A stretch of 64,000 nucleotides of DNA. Origin: an uncultured Bacteroidales bacterium (lineage in GTDB: Bacteria; Bacteroidota; Bacteroidia; Bacteroidales; JAKIYJ01). Under the pieces are notes generated by a model. The model saw only the letters and a list, made by a program, of their open reading frames with translations. It did no database searches and was not told where the DNA came from. The position numbers were made by a program, and so were the translations under genes. Numbering within the stretch: the stretch's first letter is position 1; every line of letters starts with the position of its first letter. Shown piece by piece: positions 3,157 through 38,887 of this stretch. The stretch spans positions 22,473 through 86,472 of the forward strand of contig CAZDEU010000002.1 in NCBI GenBank assembly GCA_964504265.1, read 5' to 3'.

Positions 3157-3265
3157 ACGTTAACTACAATTAAATCTTATCTATGATAGTACATGTAAAT
3201 TCAAATATTCGAATGTCATGCGATTAACTATTTTTAAAATAATCGAAAAATAATTAGTGAAAAGC

Positions 3266-3320: not shown

Positions 3321-3635
3321 ATGAAAACACAATTAGCATTACAGCCGGCAACACAGAGAAAAACATATTATGTATCTCTTTATAAAAATGAACCTACTTA
3401 TAAAAACAAGCAATTATTTTTTGCTTATTATGGCGAAGATTATCCTACAGAGCATGATGCGAAAATGGAAGCAATTAAAGATTTTTTAAGTAAACAGGGC
3501 GCCTGCGGTTTCTATAATACCGTAACATTGACAGAACATAATGGAATCCAATTGGCGGATGCAAACGAACCATATATGATGAAAAGTGCAATTGTTAAAA
3601 TACTTGCTGTAAAAAGAGTAAAATTATACCGCTAA
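3321..3635 (+). CDS. hypothetical protein (104 aa)
   Basis: ORF flanked by a promoter (3266) and a terminator (3657). Confidence 0.6.
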   Translation: MKTQLALQPATQRKTYYVSLYKNEPTYKNKQLFFAYYGEDYPTEHDAKMEAIKDFLSKQGACGFYNTVTLTEHNGIQLADANEPYMMKSAIVKILAVKRVKLYR

Positions 3636-3656
3636 ATTCTAGTGGAATTTATTTAA

Positions 3657-3687
3657 CCCTTGTATTAATTTACAGGGGTTTCTTTTT
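3657..3687 (+). terminator. intrinsic terminator
   Basis: CCCTTGT (3657-3663) / ACAGGGG (3672-3678) stem followed by TTTCTTTTT. Confidence 0.65.
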
Positions 3688-4231
3688 GACTATATATCAC
3701 ATAATTTTAAATATTCGAATGTCATTGAGTTAATATACTTACAGATGTTAAAATCCTATATAAGTATCATTATCATTAGAGCAACGAATATTAGTCTAGC
3801 CAGCGTTCTACTGTTTCAAGGAAATTTCCGCATACGTATACTTTTGGTATTTGAATTTCAAAATTACTATAAAAATAGTGATTCGCTAATATATTGATAT
3901 CCAGATCTTAAATGCAAGTTAGATAATTTTATAAATATTTCCGCAGCTACGAACTTTGATTTTATTGCAATTCCATCCAGCATAATACTATTCCTCTTTA
4001 ACATCTCCGGCGGTTGGAAAGATCATTGCTAATTAGCTTACACAAAGTAGACTACGATGATAGCTCGTTGCGGCATAATATGATTTGTATATTTAGTTAG
4101 CATTGTTAGCGTTCAACTGTTGGATGCCGCAGAAAAATAATTCGAGAAATTGTTATATAGTGCCTGTAATAACTAACAATGATTTCAATATACACGGCAA
4201 TCTGATTGGTCCGACTTGCAATCACTAAAAA

Positions 4232-4313
4232 ATAAAAAATCGAATTTACCTACTGTACGATTCGATGATTTCAATCGATTCGAAGGAATTTTCTGCCAGA
4301 TACAAAGTATATA
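4232..4313 (+). repeat. degenerate direct repeat A, copy 1
   Basis: ATAAAAAATCGA ... GATTCGAAGGAATTTTCTGCCAGATACA aligns with copy 2 about 305 nt downstream. Confidence 0.6.
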
Positions 4314-4538
4314 CAACGGCGCCAATTAGTTACAATGATTAGATTAGCTTATGTAATTATACAGCAGTTAGTACTGATCATGCACCAAAAATTTTAAAAA
4401 TCTTACCAAAGTTTGACAACTAAATTTTACTTGCCATGTACATCACGCAGAAATTTCTTTCGAATCGAACTTAAAGTAAAGCTTGAAGTAAAATCATGAT
4501 CATTATATATAGCTACTTAAGCTAATATTATTTTTTTT

Positions 4539-4973: not shown

Positions 4974-5026
4974 GTCTAAAATATTTTCCTAGGAGAATGC
5001 TAGTTCTTTTATGGCATTAATGCAAC
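4974..5026 (+). repeat. direct repeat B, copy 2
   Basis: GTCTAAAATATTTTCCTAGGAGAATGCTAGTTCTTTTATGGCATTAATGCAAC. About 85% identical to copy 1, 147 nt downstream. Confidence 0.65.
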
Positions 5027-5393
5027 ATATATAAATATCTATACATAATAAGTGTATAGCAGTTATTATATACTAACATGCATGCAACTACTTATGTATT
5101 TAGCATTTCTGAAAAATAATGCTAATTAGATTAAGTATTTCATGGTAAGTTGATTCTTAATTTTCCGATACGTGATGCAGGAAAGCTAATTCAGTACTTA
5201 AGTACTGAAATTATAATCAACTATTAACCAATCGACTAATCAATTTCATAACGTATCGTCTAACATGCGGAGATATCTTTGTTGCCGGCATGCTAATGTA
5301 GATATGGAAGAACCTATACTGATATAAAATAATTGTTAAATAATTAGGAATCAACAAATATATTCACTACATTTATCCTTTAAATTAAATAAT

Positions 5394-5627
5394 ATGCATG
5401 AAATTTCAATGACTGAGTTATGTGAAGAACATAACAAATTAATTGATGAACATAATGCTTTAAAAGCAAACTATGAATCATTAGAAGGAAAATTTGATAG
5501 AATGACTAAATTAGCTGAAATGGCAACTGATATAGCTATTGCAAAAGAAACATATATTCAAGCCCAATCTAATGAAATAGCTAGATTACATGCATTATTA
5601 CGTTTAGCTAATATACATTACATATGA
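5394..5627 (+). CDS. hypothetical coiled-coil protein (77 aa)
   Basis: Heptad-like, Glu/Lys/Ala-rich translation. Confidence 0.55.
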   Translation: MHEISMTELCEEHNKLIDEHNALKANYESLEGKFDRMTKLAEMATDIAIAKETYIQAQSNEIARLHALLRLANIHYI

Positions 5628-5782
5628 TAACATTCATCATTAAACTAGTAATAGGTATAATAATAGCAGCTATAGCAGTAACGCTATTCTTATGGATAAT
5701 ATTACCAATAATCTGTATAATAATTTTTGCTTTCCTACTAATAGGATTAATATATTTAATCATTAAACTATTAACAAGATGA
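5624..5782 (+). CDS. small hydrophobic membrane peptide (52 aa, not in ORF track)
   Basis: ATGA overlap with the previous stop and ATGA-type overlap with the next start. Translation is MITFIIKLVIGIIIAAIAVTLFLWIILPIICIIIFAFLLIGLIYLIIKLLTR. Confidence 0.5.
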   Translation: MITFIIKLVIGIIIAAIAVTLFLWIILPIICIIIFAFLLIGLIYLIIKLLTR

Positions 5783-6021
5783 AAACAAAACAAACAAAAG
5801 CTACTATATCATCAGTAGCAGTAATACTATTAATAGTATCATACATAATGTCATATGTAGTATTTAATCCAATAACAGTACTTACATATACATTAATAGC
5901 ATTATCAGTATTAACTGTATTAGCAACATTATTTGTTATCTACATTATACTAATAGCAAGTTATGTTGATTTTACTGAAGCTGCTGATGAACAATTTGAA
6001 TATCCTAGTACTAAATTCTAA
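5779..6021 (+). CDS. membrane protein (80 aa, two TM segments)
   Basis: Hydrophobic translation. The antisense track ORF 5608-5793 is considered a mirror artefact. Confidence 0.6.
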   Translation: MKTKQTKATISSVAVILLIVSYIMSYVVFNPITVLTYTLIALSVLTVLATLFVIYIILIASYVDFTEAADEQFEYPSTKF

Positions 6022-6062
6022 ATACTTAAGTAACTACTTTTTAATTAATATCTTTTTATTAT

Positions 6063-6221
6063 ATGCAAAAACAAAGCGTTACACTGGCATTACTATTCAT
6101 AATATTTATAGCAGTAACAACTATATTACCAATTAAAAATACAATAGTAGATGCTGGATATATAGTATTTGCTATAGCAAGTTTATCTATTGTATTAGCA
6201 AACTGGAAATACATAAAATAA
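6063..6221 (+). CDS. small hydrophobic membrane peptide (52 aa, not in ORF track)
   Basis: MQKQSVTLALLFIIFIAVTTILPIKNTIVDAGYIVFAIASLSIVLANWKYIK. This is the third consecutive small membrane ORF. Confidence 0.45.
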   Translation: MQKQSVTLALLFIIFIAVTTILPIKNTIVDAGYIVFAIASLSIVLANWKYIK

Positions 6222-6277
6222 CAGTATTGCTAGCCTACTTCGCTAACAAAATTTATTTAAAATAAATCAGATTTCTC

Positions 6278-6308
6278 TTGGATTTCTGATAATAGCATAC
6301 TATCTTTA
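6278..6308 (+). promoter_or_regulatory. Bacteroidota-type promoter (-33 TTG, 20-nt spacer, -7 TAtcTTTA)
   Basis: cTTGgatttctgataatagcatacTATCTTTA. It lies inside the 45-nt block 6261-6305, which is repeated exactly at 10309-10353. Confidence 0.55.
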
Positions 6309-6331
6309 TGGCATAATTAAAAACAAAGATT

Positions 6332-6565
6332 ATGCAAGCAAATATCGAAAACTTCAAAGAAATGTTAAATAAAGCAAATGGTAATAAAGTAGAAATGCAA
6401 AAAGCATTTGACAGAATTACTTCTTATTTAGCTTCTTCTGTATTGGGTAGAGATTTTAACGAAACAGTTGAAAGTTATTTAAACAGAAAGCCAAATATTA
6501 AAGAAATACATGACTGGTCAAAGAAAGTAATAATAAGTCCAAATTTCACAATAATAGCAATATAA
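6332..6565 (+). CDS. hypothetical protein (77 aa)
   Basis: ORF 24 nt after the -7 box. Confidence 0.6.
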   Translation: MQANIENFKEMLNKANGNKVEMQKAFDRITSYLASSVLGRDFNETVESYLNRKPNIKEIHDWSKKVIISPNFTIIAI

Positions 6566-6768
6566 TGAAAAAGATAATTGACATACCAGAATATATAGTA
6601 AAAGACCTTAAAAAATTAGCGGTTGATGAAAATGTTGATTTAAAAAACTACATTCAAAACAAGCTAATAAAAATAGTCGAATTATCAAAAGTTAAATATT
6701 GTACTTGTGATAAAAATACAGATGGCAGCCAAAATAAAATATGTGATGGTGATTGTCTGTTTCATTAA
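6565..6768 (+). CDS. hypothetical protein with Cys-rich C-terminus (67 aa)
   Basis: Start overlaps the previous stop. The C-terminus reads CTCDKNTDGSQNKICDGDC. Confidence 0.6.
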   Translation: MKKIIDIPEYIVKDLKKLAVDENVDLKNYIQNKLIKIVELSKVKYCTCDKNTDGSQNKICDGDCLFH

Positions 6769-6774
6769 TATGAC

Positions 6775-6895
6775 TTATAACGGTGAGTATTGGCGTTGTT
6801 GCCATCATAGAACTTAATTAATAACACTAAAATATAAAATTATGGAAAACTTATCAGAAAATACGAAAGGCAATAACGCTAATACTGTGTTATCG
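6775..6895 (+). repeat. attC-like imperfect inverted repeat E0 (121 bp)
   Basis: R'' is TTATAAC (6775-6781) and R' is GTTATCG (6889-6895). Arms GAGTATTGGCG (6785-6795) and CGCTAATACT (6877-6886) pair over 10 bp including one G.T. Confidence 0.55.
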
Positions 6896-7042
6896 GCTGG
6901 CTATTCTTACAAAATAGGCAAATTTCAAATAATACTTGATGAAGATACTGAAGAATTGAAAATAATAGTACACACCAACAAAGATAGGATGACGATAAAA
7001 CCAAATACGGATAATAGTTGCACTCTTATAGCTTGCCGATAA
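6842..7042 (+). CDS. cassette ORF, hypothetical (66 aa; start uncertain)
   Basis: The ATG at 6842 lies in the apical loop of E0, and the ORF reads through the E0 R' box. The stop TAA (7040-7042) is embedded in the E1 R'' box. Confidence 0.4.
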   Translation: MENLSENTKGNNANTVLSAGYSYKIGKFQIILDEDTEELKIIVHTNKDRMTIKPNTDNSCTLIACR

Positions 7043-7164
7043 CGTTTTGCATAAGACCAGTAAAGGAATGCGAGATATGAACTATCAAGATAAACAACAG
7101 TTTGAACGGGCTGTAATGCTGAAATTACCGATACAACCTTTATTGGTTTTATGCGGTGTTACCG
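7037..7164 (+). repeat. attC-like imperfect inverted repeat E1 (128 bp)
   Basis: R'' is CGATAAC and R' is GTTACCG. Arms TTGCATAAGACCA (7046-7058) and TGGTTTTATGCGG (7144-7156) pair over 13 bp including 3 G.T. Confidence 0.6.
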
Positions 7165-7229
7165 CCCGTTTTTATTAATCTTTAAATCAATTTATTATAA
7201 GCAAAAAACTCGAAATATTAAAACAATCA

Positions 7230-7685
7230 TTGGCGAAAAAAGAACAGCAATTAAACGCCAAACTTGACCAACATTTTGCAACCGTAAAACAAGCAAACGG
7301 GCAACCGCTTAACGACAAAAGAAACGAACAAGCTACATTAAACAAGTGGGAGCGACAAAATGAAAGTATTAGAACAATGCAAAAAAGCATTGAAGCGACT
7401 AAACAGGCAATTGAAATTGAAGAAGGCAAAATAAGAGGAGTTGAACACGCTAATACTTTTATACCTGCTGAAATTCAAAAGCTGGTTGAAACTGGAGAAC
7501 TAATTCAATGGCGAAAACACCCACATACATTTTTTGTTGCTGGAGTTGATAAGGCTCGAATTGTTTGGGATGAAAAACGCAAAGTAGTTGCCCATAAGTT
7601 TGTCAGTGAAATAACTATTCAAGAACAGCGGGCAAAATTTGTCAGAATATACAATCCGCTGAACGCTCTTTTAAATGGGCGGTAA
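7230..7685 (+). CDS. cassette ORF, hypothetical protein (151 aa)
   Basis: Visibly more G+C-rich than the backbone (38% in 7231-7290). The stop TAA (7683-7685) lies inside the E2 R'' box CGGTAAC. Confidence 0.65.
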   Translation: MAKKEQQLNAKLDQHFATVKQANGQPLNDKRNEQATLNKWERQNESIRTMQKSIEATKQAIEIEEGKIRGVEHANTFIPAEIQKLVETGELIQWRKHPHTFFVAGVDKARIVWDEKRKVVAHKFVSEITIQEQRAKFVRIYNPLNALLNGR

Positions 7686-7812
7686 CGGCTGCGGCTAAAC
7701 TGCGTTGCCGATTAAAACGCAGAAACTTATCAAATTACAACAATGGACGAAAGAGATTATAAAGCTATGAATAAGCACGAAAACGGCAATGAAGTTTTAG
7801 CCGTTGTTAGCT
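7680..7812 (+). repeat. attC-like imperfect inverted repeat E2 (133 bp)
   Basis: R'' is CGGTAAC (7680-7686) and R' is GTTAGCT (7806-7812). Arms are CGGCTAAA (7692-7699) and TTTAGCCG (7796-7803). Confidence 0.5.
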
Positions 7813-8003
7813 GCTGGGCTGTATTATTACAATGGACGACAGGGTGTGAGGCGGATGCAGAATCAACGGAAGTAAAAGCTATATTTATGACTAAACAACA
7901 GGCTGATGAATATTGCAAAATACTAAAGCCTAAAATAAAATGGCATCAATATTATCAGGGCTGCTTAGAAGTTGAAGAAGTGCCTTTCGAGCCTTGCAGC
8001 TAA
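7743..8003 (+). CDS. cassette ORF, hypothetical (86 aa as tracked; in-frame ATG at 7887 would give 38 aa)
   Basis: The first 23 codons overlap the right arm and R' box of E2, so the true start may be downstream. The stop TAA (8001-8003) is embedded in the E3 R'' box. Confidence 0.45.
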   Translation: MDERDYKAMNKHENGNEVLAVVSCWAVLLQWTTGCEADAESTEVKAIFMTKQQADEYCKILKPKIKWHQYYQGCLEVEEVPFEPCS

Positions 8004-8126
8004 CGTTGACGGTAGCAGAAGTACGGGACTTAACCGAACAAAGCTATCCAGTAACAATGACCTTAATAAAATGCAGTACACTAACATAACCACTAACACC
8101 CGTATTACTGCTACCGTGTGTTAGGC
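7998..8126 (+). repeat. attC-like imperfect inverted repeat E3 (129 bp)
   Basis: R'' is AGCTAAC and R' is GTTAGGC. In the arms GACGGTAGCAGAAGTACGGG (8008-8027) and CCCGTATTACTGCTACCGTG (8099-8118), 17 of 20 positions are Watson-Crick, one is G.T and two are mismatched. Confidence 0.65.
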
Positions 8127-8139
8127 AACGTTTTTAATT

Positions 8140-8349
8140 ATGGAAGATTTAGTAAAAGCATTTCAGATTTTTTTAAAGTATTCGGATGATAAATATCCGA
8201 CACATTGTGAACATGATTATTTATACGTAAATGTTCATCCTGACAAAGTTTCTCAGGAAGATAAAGCAGAGTTAGAAAAACTTGGATTTATCATTGATGG
8301 TGAGTATGGAGGTGATGGTTTTGGCTCATTTAGGTTCGGTAGCTGTTAA
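8140..8349 (+). CDS. cassette ORF, hypothetical protein (69 aa)
   Basis: Starts 14 nt after the E3 R' box (..TTTTTAATTATG). Confidence 0.6.
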   Translation: MEDLVKAFQIFLKYSDDKYPTHCEHDYLYVNVHPDKVSQEDKAELEKLGFIIDGEYGGDGFGSFRFGSC

Positions 8350-8354
8350 ATGTT

Positions 8355-8488
8355 GCCTAACGGTACTGCGCTATAAAATCGTGCGGGATTTCGAAGCGCA
8401 AAATTATCAACCGAGTAGAAAATAACAATAGTAGTAAACCGCTTGCATACACTCTAAAACCCGCATGTTTTATGAGCGCATGTTAGGC
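8355..8488 (+). repeat. attC-like imperfect inverted repeat E4 (134 bp)
   Basis: R'' GCCTAAC matches RYYYAAC exactly and R' GTTAGGC matches GTTRRRY exactly. Arms TGCGCT/ATAAAA/CGTGCGGG pair with CCCGCATG/TTTTAT/AGCGCA, with bulges. Confidence 0.7.
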
Positions 8489-8504
8489 ACTGTACTTTTT
8501 AATT

Positions 8505-8804
8505 ATGAATAGAGTTGAAGAAATAAGAGAAATATTAAGAGAATTTGTTGAATATGATAAGGGTAAGCGTTTGAGACAAGAACTTAAAGACATAGCAGAT
8601 AAAACATATATTCAAAAATACTCTGATAAGGAGCAGATTGATTTTTTAGATAGACATGAAGCTTCAATAAGAAGTTTACATGCTCAATCAACAAATTTTC
8701 CGTATTATCTCGAAATGTTTACCGTTTTAACTCAACATATTTATGCTGATAATATTAGGCAAATTATTGATAAAGGAATAGATATTGAACGGGCACGGTC
8801 TTAG
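8505..8804 (+). CDS. cassette ORF, hypothetical protein (99 aa)
   Basis: Starts 17 nt after the E4 R' box. Confidence 0.6.
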   Translation: MNRVEEIREILREFVEYDKGKRLRQELKDIADKTYIQKYSDKEQIDFLDRHEASIRSLHAQSTNFPYYLEMFTVLTQHIYADNIRQIIDKGIDIERARS

Positions 8805-8810
8805 TATTGT

Positions 8811-8906
8811 GCCTAACGGCTGGCGGTATGGTTATATGTGCCTATCTACTGCCTGTCAATTTACCACAAACTTTTAAAGGCACATTAATTATACCGCTTG
8901 TTATAA
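8811..8906 (+). repeat. attC-like imperfect inverted repeat E5 (96 bp, short loop)
   Basis: R'' is GCCTAAC and R' is GTTATAA. Arms are GCGGTAT..ATGTGCCT (8823-8843) and AGGCACAT..ATACCGC (8878-8897). Confidence 0.6.
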
Positions 8907-8928
8907 GCTGTATTAAAAATTTTTAGCT

Positions 8929-9168
8929 ATGGATGCAGAAATTTTAAATTACCCAACAGAAACAGGTAAACCAAGAAACAATTCAAAACTTGCTTATGTA
9001 GATTGCTGCATGAGGCTTATGGACTGGCATAGACCATTTGAAGAAATGAGTAACGATGACTTAGATAGCTTATATTTTGTAGCTTTCAAAAGTTGGGCTT
9101 ATCATTTAACACGACAGGCTTATATTGATTACTTAAATAAATACAGGATAGAACGCTGTCCGTGTTAA
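8929..9168 (+). CDS. cassette ORF, hypothetical protein (79 aa)
   Basis: ORF between E5 and E6. Confidence 0.6.
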   Translation: MDAEILNYPTETGKPRNNSKLAYVDCCMRLMDWHRPFEEMSNDDLDSLYFVAFKSWAYHLTRQAYIDYLNKYRIERCPC

Positions 9169-9172
9169 TTGC

Positions 9173-9304
9173 GTATAACGCTATTGCGGTATGAAATGAA
9201 GCGGTGAACGGGCTGCTAATGTATCAACCGACACAGAATTACAAGCGAGTGATTAACTTGCAAAATGTACTTAACCCGCTTTGTTTTATGACCGCTTGTT
9301 AGCG
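9173..9304 (+). repeat. attC-like imperfect inverted repeat E6 (132 bp)
   Basis: R'' is GTATAAC and R' is GTTAGCG. Arms GCGGTATGAAATGAAGCGG and CCGCTTTGTTTTATGACCGC pair with G.T pairs. Confidence 0.65.
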
Positions 9305-9332
9305 GTAGTTATTAATTTAAAATCATTTAATT

Positions 9333-9560
9333 ATGAAAGAACTACTTATCAAATTAAAAATAGTGCAAGTCGTATCAAATGAGCAACGACATAAAGAAGG
9401 ATTGAAAAGATTAGGTAAAGGTTATTTTAAAGCTTATCGACTTAACCCATTCAATCCGCTGAGTTATATCCTTGTAGTAGTAACAATTCCAGTTTTATTA
9501 CTTATGTACGGTTTTGTTGGCTCATTTGAAAAGGCAATCAATCCGTTTCGGTGGGATTAA
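9333..9560 (+). CDS. cassette ORF, small membrane protein (75 aa)
   Basis: Hydrophobic segment LSYILVVVTIPVLLLMYGFVG. Lies between E6 and E7. Confidence 0.6.
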   Translation: MKELLIKLKIVQVVSNEQRHKEGLKRLGKGYFKAYRLNPFNPLSYILVVVTIPVLLLMYGFVGSFEKAINPFRWD

Positions 9561-9564
9561 TTAC

Positions 9565-9693
9565 CGCTAACGGTGAGCGTATGAAATCGAAAGGGATTAG
9601 AAAGCATATCACTATCCCACGATAAAACGTTTATAGAAATCACAGCACAACGCATACCACTGACCCCCTTTTGTTTTATACGCTGTGTTATAT
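9565..9693 (+). repeat. attC-like imperfect inverted repeat E7 (129 bp)
   Basis: R'' is CGCTAAC and R' is GTTATAT. Arms are GCGTATGAAATCGAAAGGG and CCCTTTTGTTTTATACGC. Confidence 0.65.
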
Positions 9694-9792
9694 GCTGCTT
9701 TTTAATTAGTTACAATCAAAGCACGGAGTGGGTGCGGAGTGCGGAGTGATAAAATATTTTCACTTTCATTGAAAAATAATTGATTTAAACTA

Positions 9793-9822
9793 TTGTTAAT
9801 TCAAAAATAAACCTTATCTTTA
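9793..9822 (+). promoter_or_regulatory. Bacteroidota-type promoter (-33 TTG, 19-nt spacer, -7 TAtcTTTA)
   Basis: TATTGTTAATTCAAAAATAAACCTTATCTTTATG, 24 nt before ATG 9846. Confidence 0.5.
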
Positions 9823-9845
9823 TGTCATAATTAATACTTACAATT

Positions 9846-10028
9846 ATGAATGCAACGATTGAAAAATTTCAGAAACAACAAATTGAAAAGGCTAATTTCA
9901 TTAAAGATAAAGCTCAGAAAGAAATTGAATCTTTAGAAGATGAGATATTAAGATTGAAAAAACAAATAAACGCTCAAAAATCGATAGTAAAACAGGCAAA
10001 TAAAGATATTCAACATTATTCAGAATGA
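9846..10028 (+). CDS. hypothetical coiled-coil protein (60 aa)
   Basis: Lys/Glu/Gln-rich, heptad-like translation. Confidence 0.55.
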   Translation: MNATIEKFQKQQIEKANFIKDKAQKEIESLEDEILRLKKQINAQKSIVKQANKDIQHYSE

Positions 10029-10183
10029 AAGGCGGCAAAAGAACAGGTGCAGGGAGAAAACCTTGCACCGATAAAAAACAGCAAATGACAATCTATGTTT
10101 TAACTTCTCAAATCGAAAAGTTAGGCAAAGATGCAATTCGTCAAGTATGCGAAAAAGCTATCAACGAAGCGGTTTTAAAGTAG
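10025..10183 (+). CDS. small basic protein (52 aa, not in ORF track)
   Basis: ATGA overlap with the upstream stop. Translation is MKGGKRTGAGRKPCTDKKQQMTIYVLTSQIEKLGKDAIRQVCEKAINEAVLK. The last base of the stop TAG (10181-10183) is the first base of GCATATAAC (10183-10191). Confidence 0.5.
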   Translation: MKGGKRTGAGRKPCTDKKQQMTIYVLTSQIEKLGKDAIRQVCEKAINEAVLK

Positions 10184-10184
10184 C

Positions 10185-10285
10185 ATATAACTATTATATA
10201 ATTGAATTCCTTTATAACTAATTGATTATAAATGAAAAAGGTATATCAACTTTAGGAAATTTTAAAAATATTCTTAAAGTTAGGA
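10185..10285 (+). repeat. possible degenerate attC-like element E8 (101 bp)
   Basis: GCATATAAC (10183-10191) is the exact complement of GTTATATGC (9687-9695, the E7 R' box). An R'-like GTTAGGA lies at 10279-10285 and the loop motif TATCAAC at 10244-10250. The arms are AT-rich and only weakly paired. Confidence 0.3.
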
Positions 10286-10308
10286 ATTATTCACATATAA
10301 CAATTCAA

Positions 10309-10353
10309 AATAAATCAGATTTCTCTTGGATTTCTGATAATAGCATACTATCT
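10309..10353 (+). repeat. exact 45-nt copy of 6261-6305 (promoter block)
   Basis: AATAAATCAGATTTCTCTTGGATTTCTGATAATAGCATACTATCT is identical in both places. Here the -7 box is degraded to TATCTAAT. Confidence 0.85.
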
Positions 10354-10498
10354 AATAGATGCTTTTTTAAACTTGAAGAAGCAATTCTTTATGCCATTGG
10401 TAGTAATGTTGGTAAACGTAATGACACTACTTTGTTAGTTCATATCGACACTTTTGTAACAATGATAACGAAAGACTAATTATTGTTGAGTAGCAATT

Positions 10499-10524
10499 AA
10501 ACCAGCGTAACTGCTGGTTTTTTA
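10499..10524 (+). terminator. intrinsic terminator
   Basis: AACCAGC (10500-10506) / GCTGGTT (10513-10519) stem followed by TTTTT. Confidence 0.65.
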
Positions 10525-10539
10525 ATGATCACTCCATGC

Positions 10540-10559
10540 AGCGATAAGCGCTTATCGCT
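10540..10559. repeat. perfect 20-bp palindrome AGCGATAAGC|GCTTATCGCT
   Basis: The same half-sites (AGCGATAA ... TTATCGCT) recur at 11590-11609. Confidence 0.7.
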
Positions 10560-10614
10560 CTTATTTAGATCAATTATAAATAATACTACAATTCAAAAAT
10601 ATCTTGCAAAAAGC

Positions 10615-10645
10615 TTGTATATACAAATAAAATATATTACTTTTA
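10615..10645 (+). promoter_or_regulatory. Bacteroidota-type promoter (-33 TTG, 20-nt spacer, -7 TActTTTA) with no obvious ORF downstream
   Basis: aaaaGCTTGTATATACAAATAAAATATATTACTTTTA. Confidence 0.45.
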
Positions 10646-10666
10646 TACTAGTAAACTTTAAATCAA

Positions 10667-10728
10667 GGTATTGGGCAGGTATGACTATATATCAAATTAT
10701 TTGGCTATATGCATGCCTAGCCAATACC
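10667..10728 (+). ncRNA. candidate small RNA hairpin downstream of orphan promoter
   Basis: GGTATTGGGCAGG (10667-10679) is complementary to CCTAGCCAATACC (10716-10728) at 11 of 13 positions. It begins about 20 nt after the -7 box. Confidence 0.3.
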
Positions 10729-10887
10729 ACTACATGCAGTTTAATACTATAAATGTAAGAATAATTTTGCACATACACAAATAAAATAACAATTATTTTT
10801 ACAGCAGTACTAGCTTAAGCTACATCACTACACTTATTTAGAATTGATATAAATAACAAAATAATCGAAAAATAAATCAATAAAAGC

Positions 10888-10918
10888 TTGTGTATCTGGA
10901 AATAGCTTACTATCTTTG
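10888..10918 (+). promoter_or_regulatory. Bacteroidota-type promoter (-33 TTG, 20-nt spacer, -7 TAtcTTTG, exact consensus)
   Basis: aaaaGCTTGTGTATCTGGAAATAGCTTACTATCTTTG, 20 nt before ATG 10939. Confidence 0.65.
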
Positions 10919-10938
10919 GACTATTAAAATTAAACAAA

Positions 10939-11145
10939 ATGACACACTTAACTTATATTAAAATAGATAAACATAGAGCAAAATATAATGATGTTCTACG
11001 TAAAGGATTAGCTAAATTAAATATATCAATTGATATCAAATCATCAAAATATGGTAAAAATATTTATGTAATTAATTCAGTTGATGTATTTAAAGCTCAA
11101 AAGTTTTTACTAAGCATATCTTTAACAAACCCGCAATATATTTAA
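10939..11145 (+). CDS. hypothetical protein (68 aa)
   Basis: ORF after the promoter. Confidence 0.6.
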   Translation: MTHLTYIKIDKHRAKYNDVLRKGLAKLNISIDIKSSKYGKNIYVINSVDVFKAQKFLLSISLTNPQYI

Positions 11146-11171
11146 TTATTAATCATATAAATCTAAACAAA

Positions 11172-11384
11172 ATGAAAGCAAATTTAACATTAGCAGCACA
11201 AGAAGGTAAACTAAACTACATTCTTAGCCAATTATATGCATTAACAACCGAAGAAAAGTGCTATATAGCTGATAACTTATGTGATGAATTGGAGATCGAA
11301 CTAAACGAAGTTATTAAGTTACCTAGCAAGATCTTAGTTGTTACTGATAATTTATCTTCACAATTCAAAGAAAACGGCAAATAA
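11172..11384 (+). CDS. hypothetical acidic protein (70 aa)
   Basis: Preceded by the leader CATATAAATCTAAACAAAATG, which is repeated before the next ORF. Confidence 0.6.
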   Translation: MKANLTLAAQEGKLNYILSQLYALTTEEKCYIADNLCDELEIELNEVIKLPSKILVVTDNLSSQFKENGK

Positions 11385-11411
11385 CGTATTAACCATATAA
11401 ATCTAAACAAA

Positions 11412-11573
11412 ATGAAATACTACGAATGCAACGAATGCGGTAACACATTCACATCAAAAGAACAACATGTAAGCAATTGCCCAATCTGTGGTAGCAACTT
11501 AGAGCATGTCAATCAGATTTCAAAAGAATATTATGATGCTTTAAGTATCGCTTGTGCTGACATTGAAGATTAG
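11412..11573 (+). CDS. zinc-ribbon protein (53 aa, not in ORF track)
   Basis: MKYYECNECGN...CPICGS (CxxC-x17-CxxC), with the same leader CATATAAATCTAAACAAAATG. Confidence 0.55.
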   Translation: MKYYECNECGNTFTSKEQHVSNCPICGSNLEHVNQISKEYYDALSIACADIED

Positions 11574-11579
11574 AATAAG

Positions 11580-12600
11580 TTGAAAATACAGCGATAATAA
11601 CTTATCGCTAATAACGGTTGCAGCTTAACAGTAAATTAGCACATAGCTACAAATTCATAAGAATGGCAATATACTTAAAAAGCAAACTTAGCCAGGGAAT
11701 ATTATAAGTTCAGCCGTTATTTTTTTATTATTAGTATACTTAATCGTTATTTTTATAAGTTTGAGATACAAATTAATAAATAGCAAAACAAATTGTTTCA
11801 GCAATGCACGCTGGTAATTTATAAGTCAAAAAATAAGTTCGTAGAGTTTGCAGAGAATTATTTATGCGGGTTTGAGGTGAATGTGGAAATGGGCAGGTGG
11901 TCTAATGTATACGTCAAATAAGAATCATTCTTGTTTAGGAATAATTCTTTACGCTTCACGTAGCTGCTTTATTTCCGCTTGCAGTAATTTTCGCTTGATT
12001 AGCTTGTATCTGCAAGTTTCTATTTTCACTTATTTCTATTTACTTATTGCTTAACATATAATACTTACCAGCAATTATAGTTTCTATTCTTTGCAATATT
12101 TTAACATATAAACCACCGTTTATATAAGTATCTGTTTATATGTTGACTGCTGGTTATACTGCCAGTTAGATTTTGGTAATTACATTGCTGAGTATGCTTA
12201 AGTTTTTATTAATTTTTATTTGATTTTATTTGTATATTATACTTACATTTGTTTTTAAATAAATTAATATTATGAAAATACATTATTAGAGTATTGATAA
12301 CAATGATAGCTCTTTAGAAAGTTACTGTGAGTATTTAATTAGGATAAGATTAGTTGTATTACTGTTACTAATTATGATACAGATACAGTTATATGGTTTG
12401 CCAGTAAAGCTATTATAGTTACGGATTGTATTTAAGGTTGAATATTATTTTATGCTAGCGCATAGTAGCAAAAATTATTAGTATAATTAGCATGTATTGC
12501 TTAAATAAAAATGATAATAATGCTAGTTACATGCTTAAAATATATGTCAAATTGTTTGTGCAAATCGAATTAATTTCTTATTTTTGAGATATTAAATTTT
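11580..12600. other. 1.0-kb ORF-free AT-rich tract with short iterated motifs
   Basis: TTTCTATT occurs at 12017, 12033 and 12081. GTTTATAT occurs at 12118 and 12134. There are hairpins at 11590-11609 and at 11978-11984/12010-12016. Confidence 0.6.
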
Positions 12601-27347: not shown

Positions 27348-28559
27348 TTATAAAGAATTAATCTTTATTGGATTAAGCACTAATCCTATATCGGTTGGCA
27401 CGTATGCATCACCGAATTCTTTTCTTCCAATGTTGAGACTACCGTTAATGTCTGCGTTAATTAATAAATTTTTTGAAGTTTTAAATAATCCTCTTTTAAT
27501 GCGATTACCTAAATAATTTTCATGTTTACAAATTTTTTCATTATCTAAAGCAGAACACTTCGAAGTGTAATTTTCAGTTATAACTTTGCAATTAATTCCT
27601 TCCAATTTACATTTATACTCTATCATTTTGATAAATGTTAAATGCGGAATACTTACAAATTGCTGGTTATTTCTCTTTCCTAAATTTACTTCTTGCTTCC
27701 ATTCAGGGTTATAACCTACTACTAAACTACTTACATTATTTTTTGCTAAATAATTGACTATAATTCTGGAAGATTTATGAAGATAGTCTTTGATTTTGTT
27801 ATTTCGCTTTGTTGTAAAGTTTGTAAGTTTTTTACTTGTTTTCTTTTTGTGATTTTTTTCTAAACTACATTGTATTTTTGCTTTATGTTTATTATAATAT
27901 TGATTAATTGATTTTAATGGTTTGCCATTAATTATTATTGCATTATTGTTATTAAATGTAAGAGTTGCCAAATTATTAATACCTAAATCTATTGCTGAAT
28001 AATTATTGTTTGTAATTAATTCTTTTTCAGGAACTTCATATACAACTTCTATAGTGTAGTTGCCAGATTTAGGAATAATTCTAACTTCTTTTATTTTTGT
28101 TGTTATGTTTGTTTTTATTGGTTGTAGATTAGTTTTTTTTGGAAAATGAACAAACCCATTTTTTAAAATTTTAGTATTAAATCCTGAAAAAATTAGAATA
28201 TTTCTGCCTTTTAATTTATCTTTATATTTTGGAAATTTTGGACAACCATTTAACGATGTTTTATCCTTTTTATATTTTTTTATTAATGCAAAGAATGATT
28301 TAATATTATGATCTAATAATAATAAAATTTGTTGAGAAACTTGTGAATTTAGTTTTCTATAATCATTAAATTGTTCTTCTTTATTTTTCAGTATTTTTTC
28401 AATTGCATGATATCTTAAAGTTTTGCCAGTTAATAAATAATGTTGCTTTATTTCATATAAAGCTTGATTATAAAGATTTTTAGATAGAAAGCATAATGCA
28501 TCAATTTGTTTCCAAGATTGGTGATGTTTTGATATATTGTGTTGTTCTACTAAAATCAT
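27348..28559 (-). CDS. tnpB: TnpB-like RNA-guided nuclease (IS200/IS605 OrfB, IS1341-type; no tnpA)
   Basis: RuvC-I SAIDLGINNLATL; VVGYNPEWKQEVNLGKRNNQQF; ENYTSKCSALDNE; and GNRIKRGLFKTSKNLLINADINGSLNIGRK, the characteristic C-terminal RuvC-III block. The canonical CxxC pairs of the Zn finger are not present. Confidence 0.85.
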   Translation of the reverse strand: MILVEQHNISKHHQSWKQIDALCFLSKNLYNQALYEIKQHYLLTGKTLRYHAIEKILKNKEEQFNDYRKLNSQVSQQILLLLDHNIKSFFALIKKYKKDKTSLNGCPKFPKYKDKLKGRNILIFSGFNTKILKNGFVHFPKKTNLQPIKTNITTKIKEVRIIPKSGNYTIEVVYEVPEKELITNNNYSAIDLGINNLATLTFNNNNAIIINGKPLKSINQYYNKHKAKIQCSLEKNHKKKTSKKLTNFTTKRNNKIKDYLHKSSRIIVNYLAKNNVSSLVVGYNPEWKQEVNLGKRNNQQFVSIPHLTFIKMIEYKCKLEGINCKVITENYTSKCSALDNEKICKHENYLGNRIKRGLFKTSKNLLINADINGSLNIGRKEFGDAYVPTDIGLVLNPIKINSL

Positions 28560-29942: not shown

Positions 29943-30464
29943 TTAAATAATTTTAAACATTTTATCTTGCATTACAGGCCACCAATATCTACCACCATTA
30001 TAATTTTCATCTTCTGGGAATTTTGGTAAATAAAATTCTCTATTCTTTTCAATTAGTCTAGCACGATGTGACCTATGGAAATTTTCATTATCTAACCAAA
30101 AAGGAAAAGGATAATTATTTGCATTATACCTGTAATCTTCCCATTTTATAAAGTTTAGTATTTCGCCATCACCATCTATAAATTCCGGATTTGAAAATGT
30201 ACAATATTGGTAATGCAACGTTGTATTTATTTTATGTACTTTTTTGCAATGTAAAAGAAACATATTATAATAATGTTTAAGCAAATCCTCATAACCAACC
30301 CACATTTGAACTGCAGGATGATTTATATAACGATGTGACTTACTTGTTACATCTGTTAAGCATTCGATAATTTGTTTTGCTTCTACGACTTGTTTCCAGC
30401 AACGTTTTTTGTCTAAAACTTGCGCTGATAGTTGGAAGCTGCTGTAGGGAAGGAATGTCTGCAT
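29943..30464 (-). CDS. hypothetical protein; MQTFLPY...HPAVQMW family (often annotated pyrimidine-dimer DNA glycosylase-like)
   Basis: N-terminal MQTFLPYSSFQLSAQVLDKKRCWKQVVEAKQI and NHPAVQMW were recognised from memory only. Confidence 0.35.
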   Translation of the reverse strand: MQTFLPYSSFQLSAQVLDKKRCWKQVVEAKQIIECLTDVTSKSHRYINHPAVQMWVGYEDLLKHYYNMFLLHCKKVHKINTTLHYQYCTFSNPEFIDGDGEILNFIKWEDYRYNANNYPFPFWLDNENFHRSHRARLIEKNREFYLPKFPEDENYNGGRYWWPVMQDKMFKII

Positions 30465-30466
30465 TT

Positions 30467-30646
30467 TTAAATTTTAATTAATTGGTAATAAAATCTTTTA
30501 GTTATTTCATTATTTTTACTATGTATTGCAGCCATTTTATCATTCATTTTGGTAATTTCACCAATTACGAATTCTTTATAATTTCTACGCATATATACAA
30601 CTTTATCACCAATATTCAATTCGTTACCCAAAAAATCTGTTTTCAT
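30467..30646 (-). CDS. hypothetical protein (59 aa, not in ORF track)
   Basis: MKTDFLGNELNIGDKVVYMRRNYKEFVIGEITKMNDKMAAIHSKNNEITKRFYYQLIKI. Confidence 0.45.
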   Translation of the reverse strand: MKTDFLGNELNIGDKVVYMRRNYKEFVIGEITKMNDKMAAIHSKNNEITKRFYYQLIKI

Positions 30647-30713
30647 ATGATTTTAATTTAAAGAACAAATGTAAGAAATATTTTTCAAATTTCAAAGAAA
30701 ATAATGATTTAAA

Positions 30714-30739
30714 TGAAAAAGGTGCAATTTCTGCACCTT
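30714..30739 (-). terminator. intrinsic terminator (minus strand)
   Basis: AAGGTGCA (30719-30726) / TGCACCTT (30732-30739) stem, followed on the minus strand by TTTTTCATT. Confidence 0.65.
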
Positions 30740-30744
30740 TAAAA

Positions 30745-30972
30745 TTATTTTGGTATTGATTCTTCTAAAACTTCACCGCATTGCCCGCATTCAAACACTT
30801 GCACTGGTAATATTGATTCTTTACCAGCTAATAATGCTGATACTTTCCTCAATAAAAATACAGTTATAAATCTATCGTGCCCACATGCTTTACATACAAT
30901 TGGGGTTGTTTCGTCTAATGAAATATTAAAATTCTTGTTGTCCATATATGTCTTCTTTTTTATTTTTATCAA
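30745..30972 (-). CDS. zinc-ribbon protein (75 aa)
   Basis: CKACGH ... CGQCGE. Overlaps the GroEL 3' end. Confidence 0.5.
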   Translation of the reverse strand: MIKIKKKTYMDNKNFNISLDETTPIVCKACGHDRFITVFLLRKVSALLAGKESILPVQVFECGQCGEVLEESIPK

Positions 30973-32566
30973 TTATGTTTGTAATAACTGCTTCTGTTGT
31001 AAGTAACATACCAGCTGCACTAGCTGCTTTTTGTAATGCTGTTTTTATTACTTTTGTTGGATCAATAATACCTGCTTCATACATATCTACTTTAACATTA
31101 TTTCTAATATCATGACCAATTTGAAATTCAGTATTTTTTAAATCAGGAATTACATCATAATCATTATAACCAGCATTTGAAATAAGTTTCATGAATGGTT
31201 TTTTAATTGAATCTAATACAATATTATAACCAATTTGATTATCTTTTGTCATACTAATAGAAGTAGTTGCTGGTGATTCTTGTATCAATTTAGAAATCTT
31301 ATATAAAGCAATTCCTCCGCCTGGTAATATTCCTTCTTCAAGTGCTGCTCTAGTAGCATGTAATGCATCATCAACACGGTCTTTCTTTTCTTTTAATTCA
31401 ATTTCAGTTTCAGCACCAATATTAAGAATAGCAACTCCTCCAGCTAATTTAGCAAGTCTTTCTTGCATACGTTCTTTATCATATGCGGAGTCTGCTATAT
31501 CAATTGCTGATTTAATTTCATTAATTCTTTCAGCAATTTTTTCTGTATCGCCTGCGCCACTGATAATAGTAGTTTCTTTTGAATTAACTACAACACGTTT
31601 AGCTTGACCAAACATATCAACTGTTACTTTATCAAGTGTATGGCCTTTTTCTGGTGATATTACTGTGCCATTTGTAACAACTGCTATATCTTCTAATATT
31701 GCAGCACGTCTATTTCCAAAATCTGGTGCCTTTACTGCACAAACAGCTAAAGTTCCTCTCATTTTGTTAACAACTAATCCAGCAAGAGCTTCCCCATCTA
31801 CATCTTCAGCAATAATCAACAAAGGTTTATTTTTAGTAATTACTTGCTCAAGCACTTTAATAAATTCTTTTGTCATTGAATTTAATTTGTGATTGAATAT
31901 GAAAATATATGGATCTTTCATTTCAACTTGCATTTCATTATTATTAGTAATAAAATAAGGTGATAAATATCCACGTTCAAATTGCATACCTTCAACTACT
32001 TCTAATGTAGTTTCGTTACGTTTGCTTTCTTCAACCGTTATAACTCCATCAAGACCAACTTTTTCCATTGCTGATGCAATTAGTTTACCAATTTCAACAT
32101 CATTGTTTGCTGAAACAGTTCCTACTTGAATGATTTCATCAGTTGTTTTAATATCCTTTTTATGTGATTTTAATTCAGCAATTACATCTTTAACTGCCAT
32201 ATCAATACCACGTTTAATCTCTATTGGATTACATTTAAGTTGGTTGATATTATATAATGCTTGATCAAATATTTCATGGGCAAGAATAGTTGCTGTTGTA
32301 GTACCATCACCAGCTACATCACCAGTTTGAATTGCTGCTTCTTTAATTATTTCGCAACCCATATTTTCAACAGGATCCTGTAATGTTATTGATTTAGCAA
32401 CTGTTACACCATCTTTTGTGATACTAGGTTTGTGATATTCATTTTCAATAAGTACATTACGACCCCCAGGCCCCAATGTAGCACTCACAGCATCATATAA
32501 CTTATCTGCACCAGCTTTTAACTTATTTTTTGCATCTTCTTTAAAATGTAACTCTTTATTGTTCAT
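30926..32566 (-). CDS. groL: chaperonin GroEL (Cpn60)
   Basis: Full-length match to the GroEL pattern: [45 protein letters not shown] and ILPGGG. It has no GGM tail. Confidence 0.95.
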
Positions 32567-32568
32567 GT

Positions 32569-32865
32569 TTATTTATTAATAACTGTTAGTATATCGTTTT
32601 CTTTGCCAATAATGAATGTTTCGCCATCATGCTCAAATTTAAGCATTCCAAATTTAGGATATAATACTGTATCACCTACCTTTGTAAACAATGGATTTAT
32701 TTTTCCAGTTGTAAAATCCATATATCCCGGGCCAACCGCTATAACTTCACCAATAGTTGCTTCATTTTGAGCACTTTCTGGCAAAATAACTCCACCTGTA
32801 GAAACATCTTTTCTATCTTGCGGTTTAATTATAATTTTGTCAAGTATTGGGCTGAATTTATTCAT
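32569..32865 (-). CDS. groES: co-chaperonin GroES (Cpn10)
   Basis: 98 aa, with IIIKPQD...TGGVILPESA...GEVIAVGPG and LYPKFG...FIIGKENDILTVI. Confidence 0.9.
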   Translation of the reverse strand: MNKFSPILDKIIIKPQDRKDVSTGGVILPESAQNEATIGEVIAVGPGYMDFTTGKINPLFTKVGDTVLYPKFGMLKFEHDGETFIIGKENDILTVINK

Positions 32866-33037
32866 ATTTTATATTATCAAATTCGTTTCTAATTTCATTT
32901 GGCAATTCTTCTATAATCATTTCCCTAAGAAACGATGATACTGTTCGATGCTTTAATGCTGCAGTTGACAAAATAATATTGTACAATTCATCTTCAACAT
33001 GAACTTGTAATTTGTTGTTTTTTAATGTGTTACTCAT
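32858..33037 (-). CDS. ribbon-helix-helix (CopG/Arc-like) protein (59 aa, not in ORF track)
   Basis: KLQVHVEDELYNIILSTAALKHRTVSSFLREMIIEEL has a beta-alpha-alpha pattern. The start and stop overlap the neighbouring genes. Confidence 0.45.
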   Translation of the reverse strand: MSNTLKNNKLQVHVEDELYNIILSTAALKHRTVSSFLREMIIEELPNEIRNEFDNIKYE

Positions 33038-33500
33038 CTTTCGTTTTATTTATTTTAATTAAACTTGTTATTTTTTTTTCGTCTAAACCAAATTTCTTTA
33101 ATATTTCTTTCACTTGTAAAAACATCATTGGATTGCTGAAATAAATGTTTAAATATTCTTCAGCTTCATTTACTGAACACTCATAATAAATTGAAATATA
33201 ATTAACTAATTCTTTATTATATTTATCAACTCCTTTGCCCTTTACATATTTTAAATATATTTTCTTTTTAGGTAAAGTATTTAATAAAATATTATATGAT
33301 TGTTCAGGAGTTAATAATGAAACAGTATATTGCTGCAACATATTAATTAATTCCAAACAATCACTATTCATTGACAACCACTTATTAATCATGTAAGGTG
33401 AATAGCATTTACGTTCACTTTCTGTATATGATTTCCATGGAGTTTTATTAATAGTTAAATTACTTAAAAAATCTATAATACTAATTGCTTTTGTTGCCAT
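33030..33500 (-). CDS. clamp-loader small subunit (T4 gp62-like)
   Basis: It follows the AAA+ clamp-loader gene. YSPYMINKWLSMNSDCLELINMLQ and NILLNTLPKKK resemble the T4 gp62 layout. Confidence 0.5.
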   Translation of the reverse strand: MATKAISIIDFLSNLTINKTPWKSYTESERKCYSPYMINKWLSMNSDCLELINMLQQYTVSLLTPEQSYNILLNTLPKKKIYLKYVKGKGVDKYNKELVNYISIYYECSVNEAEEYLNIYFSNPMMFLQVKEILKKFGLDEKKITSLIKINKTKDE

Positions 33501-33669
33501 CTACTCCTTCACTTAGTTTTGACCTCTCACTTTCAGGTACATAAGGTATAATACGTTTCTTTTTGTTATGTTTATTACTACATTTTTCGCAATTACCACA
33601 ACACTCTTCTTTAATCAAATATTGTGGTATAAAATTAATATTACTAGTATTGCTAAATATATTGAACAT
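33481..33669 (-). CDS. small Cys-rich protein (62 aa)
   Basis: CCGNCEKCSNKHNKKKR. Confidence 0.45.
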   Translation of the reverse strand: MFNIFSNTSNINFIPQYLIKEECCGNCEKCSNKHNKKKRIIPYVPESERSKLSEGVDGNKSN

Positions 33670-34601: not shown

Positions 34602-34604
34602 TTA

Positions 34605-35321: not shown

Positions 35322-35345
35322 TTTATAACTTTATTTAAATAATTT

Positions 35346-35365
35346 ATTATATGTATGTCATTTTT
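35346..35365 (-). promoter_or_regulatory. conserved upstream motif (minus strand AAAAATGACATACATATAAT)
   Basis: 25 nt upstream of ATG 35321. Confidence 0.4.
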
Positions 35366-35400
35366 ATTAATTCAATATATTGAAAACTTGCAGAAATATT

Positions 35401-35658
35401 TTAATTTCTTCTAGCAGAATCAATTGCATCTTCTTCACTACAATCTTGTTCTCTTAAATTTTCAATCACTTCTTCACGTAAATCAATTTGATTATTAATT
35501 GGTCTACCCCACCATTCTTCACGCATTTGTAAAGTTTTATTATAATTATCTAAACAACGTTGTAAATATTCAGCAAGAATAAAATCTGGTGTATCACTTT
35601 CATTCTCAAGTGAACATTGATTAATTAACGTTTCTAATTCTTTTTTAAAATTTTTCAT
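35401..35658 (-). CDS. hypothetical acidic protein (85 aa)
   Basis: ORF directly after the DpdA-like gene. Confidence 0.55.
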   Translation of the reverse strand: MKNFKKELETLINQCSLENESDTPDFILAEYLQRCLDNYNKTLQMREEWWGRPINNQIDLREEVIENLREQDCSEEDAIDSARRN

Positions 35659-35661
35659 AAT

Positions 35662-38062: not shown

Positions 38063-38071
38063 ATTTAATTT

Positions 38072-38419: not shown

Positions 38420-38421
38420 AA

Positions 38422-38853: not shown

Positions 38854-38887
38854 AACTTTTAAAATTTTATAACTTTTACTTTTGTGA

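Follow-up and report, generated by a model that had tools for sequence, protein, structure and literature searches.

The DNA analysed here is a window of 64 kb (64,000 nucleotides; positions 22,473 to 86,472 of the forward strand of contig CAZDEU010000002.1) from an assembly assigned to an uncultured Bacteroidales bacterium. Its genes encode a tail sheath, a T4 baseplate protein, gp32, a RecA/UvsX-like protein, a DnaB-like helicase, a clamp loader, a Dda helicase, a ribonucleotide reductase, and GroEL, together with a block of sugar-modifying enzymes, and the window is an AT-rich piece of a large, virulent T4-like myovirus whose host probably belongs to the Bacteroidota. The first 14 kb hold small open reading frames (ORFs) on the + strand, with a promoter-like motif repeated between them (copies start at 2083, 3246, 5325, 6258, 9772, 10303, and 10868). 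Among these ORFs, eight imperfect palindromes of 100-138 nt, named E0 to E7, alternate with single small ORFs from 6774 to 9695. The palindromes are built like attC sites, the recombination sites of integron cassettes, and the block of approximately 6258-10191 is probably a cluster of attC sites lacking an integrase (CALIN), set among the + strand early genes of the phage and using a crossover between AA and C in the 5' box of each site (AA/C, where the slash marks the exchange point).

All eight palindromes share the same layout, which comprises a 5' box ending in TAAC, a spacer of 4-6 nt, a stem with a long loop, a second spacer of 1-3 nt, and a 3' box beginning with GTTA (Table 1). According to Nivina et al. 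2016 (PMC5027507), attC sites measure 57-141 nt and contain AAC and GTT boxes together with a stem, an unpaired spacer, and a variable loop, and the palindromes of the array fall inside this range of lengths. A covariance model was built from E1-E7 only, and the sites considered below were taken from its hits. This model finds E0 independently, as a full hairpin at 6768-6903 (46 bits, E 8e-9) with an 18-bp stem, and no other site in the 64 kb; a previous inspection of the letters of the window (hereafter, the sequence-only reading) had regarded E0 as a lone box. TAAC and GTTA are present in 8/8 sites of the window, and AAC and GTT occupy the expected columns in 102/109 model hits elsewhere. 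Compensatory changes are observed in 12 of the 20 consensus pairs among the seven hairpins, and none of the 28 pairs formed by the eight window cores can be aligned by BLAST. Thus, it is the structure rather than the sequence that is conserved. An Rfam scan of 5000-12000, with E values up to 1, returned no family, and the cassette proteins have no significant match in Pfam, PHROG, or PDB that would indicate a function.

Table 1. Features of the array and of the modules at its two ends
Feature	Position	Strand	Remarks
Promoter segment, two copies	6255-6305 and 10303-10353	+	51 nt, 98% identical, spacing 4048 nt
Leftmost ORF module	6258-6781	+	Early-type phage promoter 6258-6322; ORF 6332-6565; ribbon-helix-helix-like ORF 6565-6768
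5' box closing the leftmost module	6773-6781	+	ACTTATAAC; the module's own left box is missing or degenerate
attC-type hairpin E0	6774-6897	+	5' box CTTATAAC; 18-bp stem AGTATTGGCGTTGTTGCC / GGCAATAACGCTAATACT; 3' box GTTATCGGC at 6889
Unit 0 ORF, 66 aa	6842-7042	+	Starts in the E0 loop and reads across L' and the 3' box
attC-type hairpin E1	7035-7166	+	Hairpin and downstream ORF common to L008, 91%
Unit 1 ORF, 162-aa family	7197-7685	+	827 homologs, identity up to 95%
attC-type hairpin E2	7678-7814	+	Loop contains ATG at 7743
Unit 2 ORF, 86 aa	7743-8003	+	Leader from the E2 loop, body from the ORF module
attC-type hairpin E3	7996-8128	+	Covariance-model site
Unit 3 ORF, 69 aa	8140-8349	+	No family match
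attC-type hairpin E4	8353-8490	+	3' arm with G bulge at position 15 and unpaired T at position 23
Unit 4 ORF, 99 aa	8505-8804	+	
attC-type hairpin E5	8809-8908	+	Short (100 nt); covariance-model site
Unit 5 ORF, 79 aa	8929-9168	+	
attC-type hairpin E6	9171-9306	+	Core common to L039 4565-4710 (83%), boxes different
Unit 6 ORF, 75 aa	9333-9560	+	L016 matches window 9298-9571, 89%, box to box
attC-type hairpin E7	9563-9695	+	Covariance-model site
Last ORF module	9696-10191	+	Phage-type promoter 9772-9836; ORFs 9846-10028 and 10025-10183
Closing 5'-type box of the last module	10183-10191	+	GCATATAAC; no hairpin after it

The boxes of the array correspond to each other one unit out of register. 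For their comparison, the 14 nt from each GTTA were set against the 14 nt up to and including each TAAC, taken as the reverse complement, leaving the GTTA core out. At all eight junctions, a 3' box corresponds to the 5' box of the hairpin that follows, with 65/80 matches outside the core (8, 9, 8, 9, 8, 5, 9, and 9 out of 10, in order); the two boxes of one and the same hairpin agree poorly, at only 1-5 of the 10 positions. The pairing of neighbours is the unique best of 40,320 assignments, and only the identity reached its score in 200,000 random permutations. As a background, box pairs taken from different loci score at least 8/10 in 0.75% of cases, and the window junctions do so in 7/8. Exact 9-mer partners of the GTT.../...AAC type, at most 1.5 kb apart, number 24 per strand in the 64 kb, seven of which form the chain within 3.3 kb. 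The mismatches of the extended boxes are systematic, with TG or G on the 3'-box side facing AA or A on the 5'-box side, and would therefore become G.T wobbles if the + strand folds. The sequence-only reading had drawn attention to this shift, and both the shift and the boxes listed for it, all of which are present in the sequence, withstand these comparisons. Beyond the window, the same chain rule is observed at 34/70 adjacent junctions scoring at least 8/10, compared to 0.75% of random pairs.

A shift of this kind is textbook integron biology. In the 59-base element/attC cassette model, reportedly formulated by Hall, Stokes, and Collis, it is a consequence of cassettes closed through one site. 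The proposal of the sequence-only reading that the units were once circles, closed through the site that two matching boxes form, with the boxes as recombination breakpoints, is supported by two further observations. First, sites rebuilt from the next 5' box, the core, and their own 3' box are 2-10 kcal/mol more stable than the sites folded in situ. Second, counterparts of the ORFs in other DNA lie between like hairpins with matching end points. Nevertheless, the register shift alone is unable to locate the crossover box. Since the 3' box of one element and the 5' box of the next belong to one unit whether the exchange occurs at AA/C or at G/TT, the shift is equally compatible with both models, and other evidence is needed to choose between them.

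Such evidence comes from units that have moved. Comparison contigs and proteins are designated here by L and P numbers. Homologs of the largest cassette ORF, the 162-aa ORF of unit 1, are flanked by like hairpins in L002, L004, L005, L007, L008, L044, and L045, and the contigs carrying this ORF are otherwise unrelated to the window. One unit, 100% identical, stands in three different contexts (L002, L004, and L005), where the identity runs from just after the TAAC of the upstream hairpin to the TAAC of the downstream hairpin. Likewise, the similarity between the window and L008, a phage contig with no other relationship to it, covers exactly 7040-7686 (91%, from TAAC to TAAC), and in L008 this unit stands alone, inserted between ...TTAA and C.... 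Two features expected of a cassette are found: one and the same unit recurs in different contexts and has its ends in the boxes (L002/L004/L005; window/L008), and, in the window, the box at one end is complementary to the box of the unit's own site. Identical cassettes in unrelated phages are direct sequence evidence that early genes are traded by integron-type site-specific exchange. Among related site pairs, the hairpin is shared together with only its downstream ORF in four (two independent cassettes), and together with only its upstream ORF in none. A tblastn search of the phage records with the 162-aa protein returned a single distant match, in a Proteus phage. The window copy of this gene reads ATA where all close homologs start with ATG, its first canonical start being a TTG at 7230, and may be poorly translated or decaying.

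The two strands of the sites are not equivalent. With DNA folding parameters, the + (ORF-sense) strand is the more stable one in 90/106 sites (mean -2.23 kcal/mol, p = 3e-15); for canonical attC sites, it is the bottom strand that folds better, by 2.12 kcal/mol (PMC5027507). In 99/102 sites, the spacer next to the 5' box exceeds the one next to the 3' box in length. The orientation of the genes adds to this picture. In the window and the viral and metagenomic contigs, the genes lie on the model strand in 33 intervals versus 3 on the opposite one. L045, on the other hand, covers 20 kb of a Cyclobacteriaceae chromosome and carries at least 16 sites of the window family; there, the genes lie opposite to the model orientation in 11/13 intervals and the chain rule is obeyed by 13/13 scored junctions. 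Its cassette genes are cellular (Peptidase_S41, DUF3500, DUF4139, and DUF6882), and integrons are known in Bacteroidota (PMC8618304). Three independent lines of evidence, namely the fold skew, the recent transfers, and the gene orientation in L045, favour the + strand as the counterpart of the attC bottom strand. The extrahelical bases were also considered for this call, but their pattern is too irregular to decide alone. Two transposase genes interrupt the array of L045, one of the IS110 family (1188-2237) and one of the IS3 type (rve; 6489-7304); ORF 3354-4403 is exactly as long as the former and may be another copy of it.

In the favoured explanation, the folded and exchanged strand would be the ORF-sense + strand, cleaved at AA/C in the 5' box. 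A mobile unit would consist, in this order, of C, hairpin, 3' box, ORF, and 5' box up to ..TAA, and the predicted units would span 6781-7042, 7043-7685, 7686-8003, 8004-8360, 8361-8816, 8817-9178, 9179-9570, and 9571-10190, with lengths of 262-643 bp. When the unit is a free circle, its terminal 5' box would pair with the 3' box close to its start; it is this pairing that would leave each 3' box matching the 5' box of the next hairpin once the units stand in a linear array. Phage cassettes would thus be inverted in comparison with those of bacterial integrons, with the hairpin placed 5' of the gene. With borders at AA/C, no box is left orphaned and the ORFs that start in a loop (6842-7042 and 7743-8003) stay within single units; for the former, the TAA stop is formed by the three bases immediately before the crossover C. 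The exchange would be catalysed by an IntI-type tyrosine recombinase from the host or from an element outside the window, and the array may have entered the phage lineage through recombinase events or through exchange with other phages. The window ORFs scanned (40/43 of those with at least 150 aa) encode no integrase, which makes the array by definition a CALIN rather than a complete integron.

The sequence-only reading had taken the + strand as the top strand, with the crossover at G/TT in the 3' box, TTRRRY at the 5' end of the cassette, and the hairpin behind its gene. Some features resemble this classical arrangement: ORFs are followed by hairpins, with stops inside or just before the ..TAAC box; breaks at or near the 3' box are seen when L016 is compared with window 9298-9571 and L057 with 7805-8004; and the ribbon-helix-helix module starts at GTTATAAGC behind four different hairpins. 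However, the units that moved recently (100% and 91% identity) took the upstream hairpin with them and have their breakpoints in the 5' boxes, no hairpin is shared with its upstream ORF only, and both the fold-stability skew and the gene orientation of L045 point the opposite way. In addition, the loop-start ORFs would straddle cassette borders, and the E0 5' box and the box at 10183-10191 would remain orphaned. A canonical orientation is therefore unlikely for the window, where, as in the viral contigs, the ORFs lie on the bottom-like strand and are preceded by the hairpin that moves with them, whereas L045 keeps the canonical layout. The cassette sizes given by the sequence-only reading (269, 648, 314, 362, 418, 398, and 389) are correct as the arithmetic of G-to-G spacing, but the box chosen for the borders is not supported. 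Its eighth unit of about 590 bp with a site of its own could not be confirmed, since neither the covariance model nor folding finds anything hairpin-like after 10183-10191. The segment 10183-10290, with GTTAGGAAT at 10279 as its 3' box, was considered as a ninth hairpin and discarded, since it folds only weakly (-15 kcal/mol), has no model hit, and lacks a downstream partner box.

Clusters of attC sites in virulent phages were published in 2023, including one in Polaribacter phage P12002L (PMC9892861), and the core finding is thus not new. Of the phage attC sites tested in that study, two of them from P12002L, IntI1 recombined 5/6 (PMC9892861). In the P12002L genome (L043; NC_028924), the site model detects six hairpins on the gene-sense strand at 29999-39255 (- strand), among methyltransferase and Mom-like genes, and one of them is P12002L_attC1, which belongs to the window family. 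The other tested site, P12002L attC2, lies on the opposite strand and resembles half a site of the window family. The window array shares with the published phage CALINs (PMC9892861) an attC-type array, small and mostly unannotatable ORFs, a lytic phage as carrier, and the lack of an integrase. A further similarity is the presence of DNA methylase cassettes in the related arrays L002, L006, and L050. It differs from them in holding eight sites in one array, in the T4-like nature of the phage, and in the location of the ORFs on the bottom-strand side, a polarity that the paper does not address. What is added here is the inverted orientation of gene and site, the abundance of the site family in uncultured phages, and the occurrence of this family, along with homologs of one cassette gene, in both the window and a bacterial chromosomal array. 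Uncultured viral contigs (among them L030, L031, L033, L034, and L036) contain up to a dozen sites per 10 kb, all on the ORF strand.

Several observations weigh against an inverted, integrase-driven array. P12002L_attC1 is the sole member of the family that has been assayed, and the only tested phage site that IntI1 failed to recombine (PMC9892861). No tyrosine recombinase (Phage_integrase-type domain) is encoded by the scanned window ORFs of at least 150 aa (40/43, including all those of at least 200 aa), nor by ten large ORFs of related loci, and the presence of a recombinase can therefore only be inferred. The linkage of hairpin and downstream ORF comes from only two independent cassettes, and most related pairs share the ORF only (39 downstream and 22 upstream) or the hairpin core only (33). 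Some breakpoints fall at the border between spacer and stem or within the stem, which a single AA/C crossover does not explain. Canonical attC sites carry extrahelical G and T on the 3' arm of the bottom strand; here the pattern is less clean, since only 8/102 sites have a G bulge on that arm (at position 15), and T bulges occur on the 5' arm in about 15. Finally, the promoter in the last module and the 51-nt repeat that brackets the locus suggest that homologous exchange has also shaped it.

The mosaic structure of the sites illustrates these difficulties. The core of E2 is identical at 117/118 positions to L056 485-632, with different boxes, spacers, and adjoining ORFs on both sides; L002 and L044 have boxes and stem base in common and differ in the stem interior. 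Homologs of the ribbon-helix-helix module in L030, L031, L033, and L039 have GTTATAAGC...GCTTATAAC as their borders, preceded by four different hairpins and followed by five. In older comparisons, breaks occur at, or close to, both boxes. It is possible that cores and ORFs are reassorted separately by top-strand events in the 3' box, by homologous exchange in shared cores (plausible in a T4-like phage), or by both.

Homologous shuffling could also be considered as the sole cause of the arrangement, with hairpins and promoters serving as short shared sequences for the recombination machinery of the phage, and no site-specific recombinase involved. Such a process would be in keeping with a T4-like phage that has its own UvsX, gp32, and Dda, with the 51-nt promoter copies that bracket the block, with the mosaic hairpin cores common to unrelated ORFs, and with the failure to find an integrase. 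It would resemble the promoter-early stem-loop (PeSL) shuffling that Arbiol, Comeau, Krisch, and colleagues are said to have described in T4-type phages in 2010, which likewise concerns the hyperplastic early region of a T4-type phage, with small ORFs between repeated regulatory or hairpin motifs, and the window adds a duplicated promoter that brackets the block. The hairpins of the window differ from PeSLs in being attC-type palindromes of 100-138 nt with unit-specific complementary boxes and 4-nt breakpoints, and in belonging to a family also found in a bacterial chromosome. Moreover, an early promoter with a short stem-loop would be expected beside each PeSL module, as the repeats through whose homology modules are exchanged, and the promoter of the block is repeated only at 6258, 9772, and 10303 rather than in each unit. 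The whole-unit transfers break at the 4-nt TAAC without flanking homology, and the box pairs vary between units but remain complementary within each of them, which points to a structure-specific site and not to homology. The same family also forms a typical array of cellular genes in a bacterial chromosome. As a complete explanation, homologous shuffling is thus regarded as improbable. The 51-nt pair brackets the ribbon-helix-helix module and the entire array, and other members of the promoter family are only 60-82% alike; this direct repeat may be the footprint of a homologous insertion of a circular segment.

Single-strand transposition of the HUH (IS200/IS605) type, or immobile intergenic hairpins acting as terminators or resembling repetitive extragenic palindromic (REP) elements, would be a further way to account for palindromes that lie between co-oriented genes. 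A TnpB-like gene (OrfB_IS605 plus a Cas12f1-like TNB domain) is indeed found at 27348-28559 (- strand), within a block of phage replication and repair genes and with no TnpA in sight. This gene is 17 kb away from the array, however, and no Y1 transposase is seen; the ends of IS200/IS605 elements are two distinct subterminal hairpins instead of one palindrome between symmetric TAAC/GTTA boxes, and static hairpins would explain neither the register shift nor the finding of identical units in genomes that are unrelated. These possibilities are highly improbable.

The integrase-less array with inverted cassettes, which remains the preferred explanation, has much in common with chromosomal integron arrays. 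These similarities include the AAC/GTT boxes, the imperfect palindrome with its unpaired spacer and variable loop within 57-141 nt, a difference of about 2 kcal/mol between the folds of both strands, box complementarity as a one-unit register shift, and the fact that the same family builds a bacterial array in Cyclobacteriaceae (L045). Clear differences are also observed. The window ORFs are inverted with respect to the site, the RYYY/RRRY purine-pyrimidine pattern is only loosely kept in the family, the extrahelical bases are irregular, and the spacers are strongly asymmetric (4.5 nt vs 2 nt). About a third of the loops hold a start codon whose frame continues into the following module, and the window array is devoid of attI, Pc, and intI.

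The integrase-mediated insertion of canonical cassettes at non-att sites of bacterial genomes is described in a preprint (bioRxiv 10.1101/2022.09.11.507474). Two cases are similar, since L008 holds a single cassette at a plain ..TTAA/C.. outside any array, and the window array ends at ..TAA/C TATTATATAAT without a hairpin. The cases differ in that the target here is phage DNA and the recombinase is only presumed. The end box without a hairpin has a parallel in L057, where TAAC TATAATATAAT at 3238-3255 corresponds to TAAC TATTATATAAT at 10188-10205 of the window and the sequence that follows is near-identical; this shared sequence may be a preferred entry site.

The hairpins seem to contribute to the genes located behind them. 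An ATG in the loop reads through the 3' box into the next module in 32/97 phage-type hairpins, a raw count given without a chance expectation. Such loop-start ORFs are found in the window (6842-7042 and 7743-8003) and in contigs L008, L030, L031, L033, L036, L056, and L057. Among the homologs of 7743-8003, the same body occurs behind another leader, while P0130 and P0131 have the leader MDERDYKAMNKHENGNEVLA with another body; in L057, one core with its leader serves two different bodies. A wider scenario is possible, if on balance doubtful, in which Bacteroidota phages would maintain a stock of inverted cassettes of their own, and the attC hairpin upstream of each gene would double as an expression module, providing a start codon in the loop, an N-terminal leader, and an RNA hairpin with a stable fold on the sense strand. 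Cassettes, cores, and ORF bodies would be traded between virulent phages and host chromosomal integrons by the host IntI or another recombinase. Should such a phage-owned pool exist, integron chemistry would be a general engine of turnover of early genes, possibly anti-defence genes, in lytic phages.

The inverted orientation has practical consequences. Annotation tools, as well as readers, would set the cassette borders one hairpin off. Regarding expression, there is no Pc, and the hairpin is located in the 5' part of the message. The orientation is also relevant to which of the two DNA strands has to be in single-stranded form in the course of infection.

Relatives of this phage were sought in order to find an empty site or a variant array. 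Megablast of the first 25 kb of the window against 50,697 phage records gave no match. Among viral and metagenome contigs, searches with the NAPRTase-like gene and with the 99-aa cassette protein of unit 4 gave no hits, and viral contigs did not contain the exact 29-nt promoter core. Exact-protein look-ups gave only L001 and L055, two short contigs probably from the same sample, and L054, in a foreign context. The latter (ENA ERZ27257423, 870 nt) matches window 6317-6624 with 98% identity over ORF 6332-6565 and the first 60 nt of the next ORF. This copy sits in other surroundings, bounded by a different repeat, ACCGG..CGGG..AATTCAAGTCAAT, and its break inside the ribbon-helix-helix ORF points to a putative second, unrelated module-shuffling system.

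The array also stands out from the surrounding DNA by its composition, with a GC content of 33-38% across 6774-9695 compared to 26-30% in the window. The two outer modules, 6258-6781 and 9696-10191, each hold one phage-type promoter and two ORFs. Just 3' of E7, at 9724-9748, a G-rich run with three GGAGTG / GCGGAGT (heptad) repeats lies amid AT-rich DNA. Downstream of the array, a 31-nt intergenic repeat with 97% identity precedes two successive small ORFs (11147-11177 and 11387-11417).

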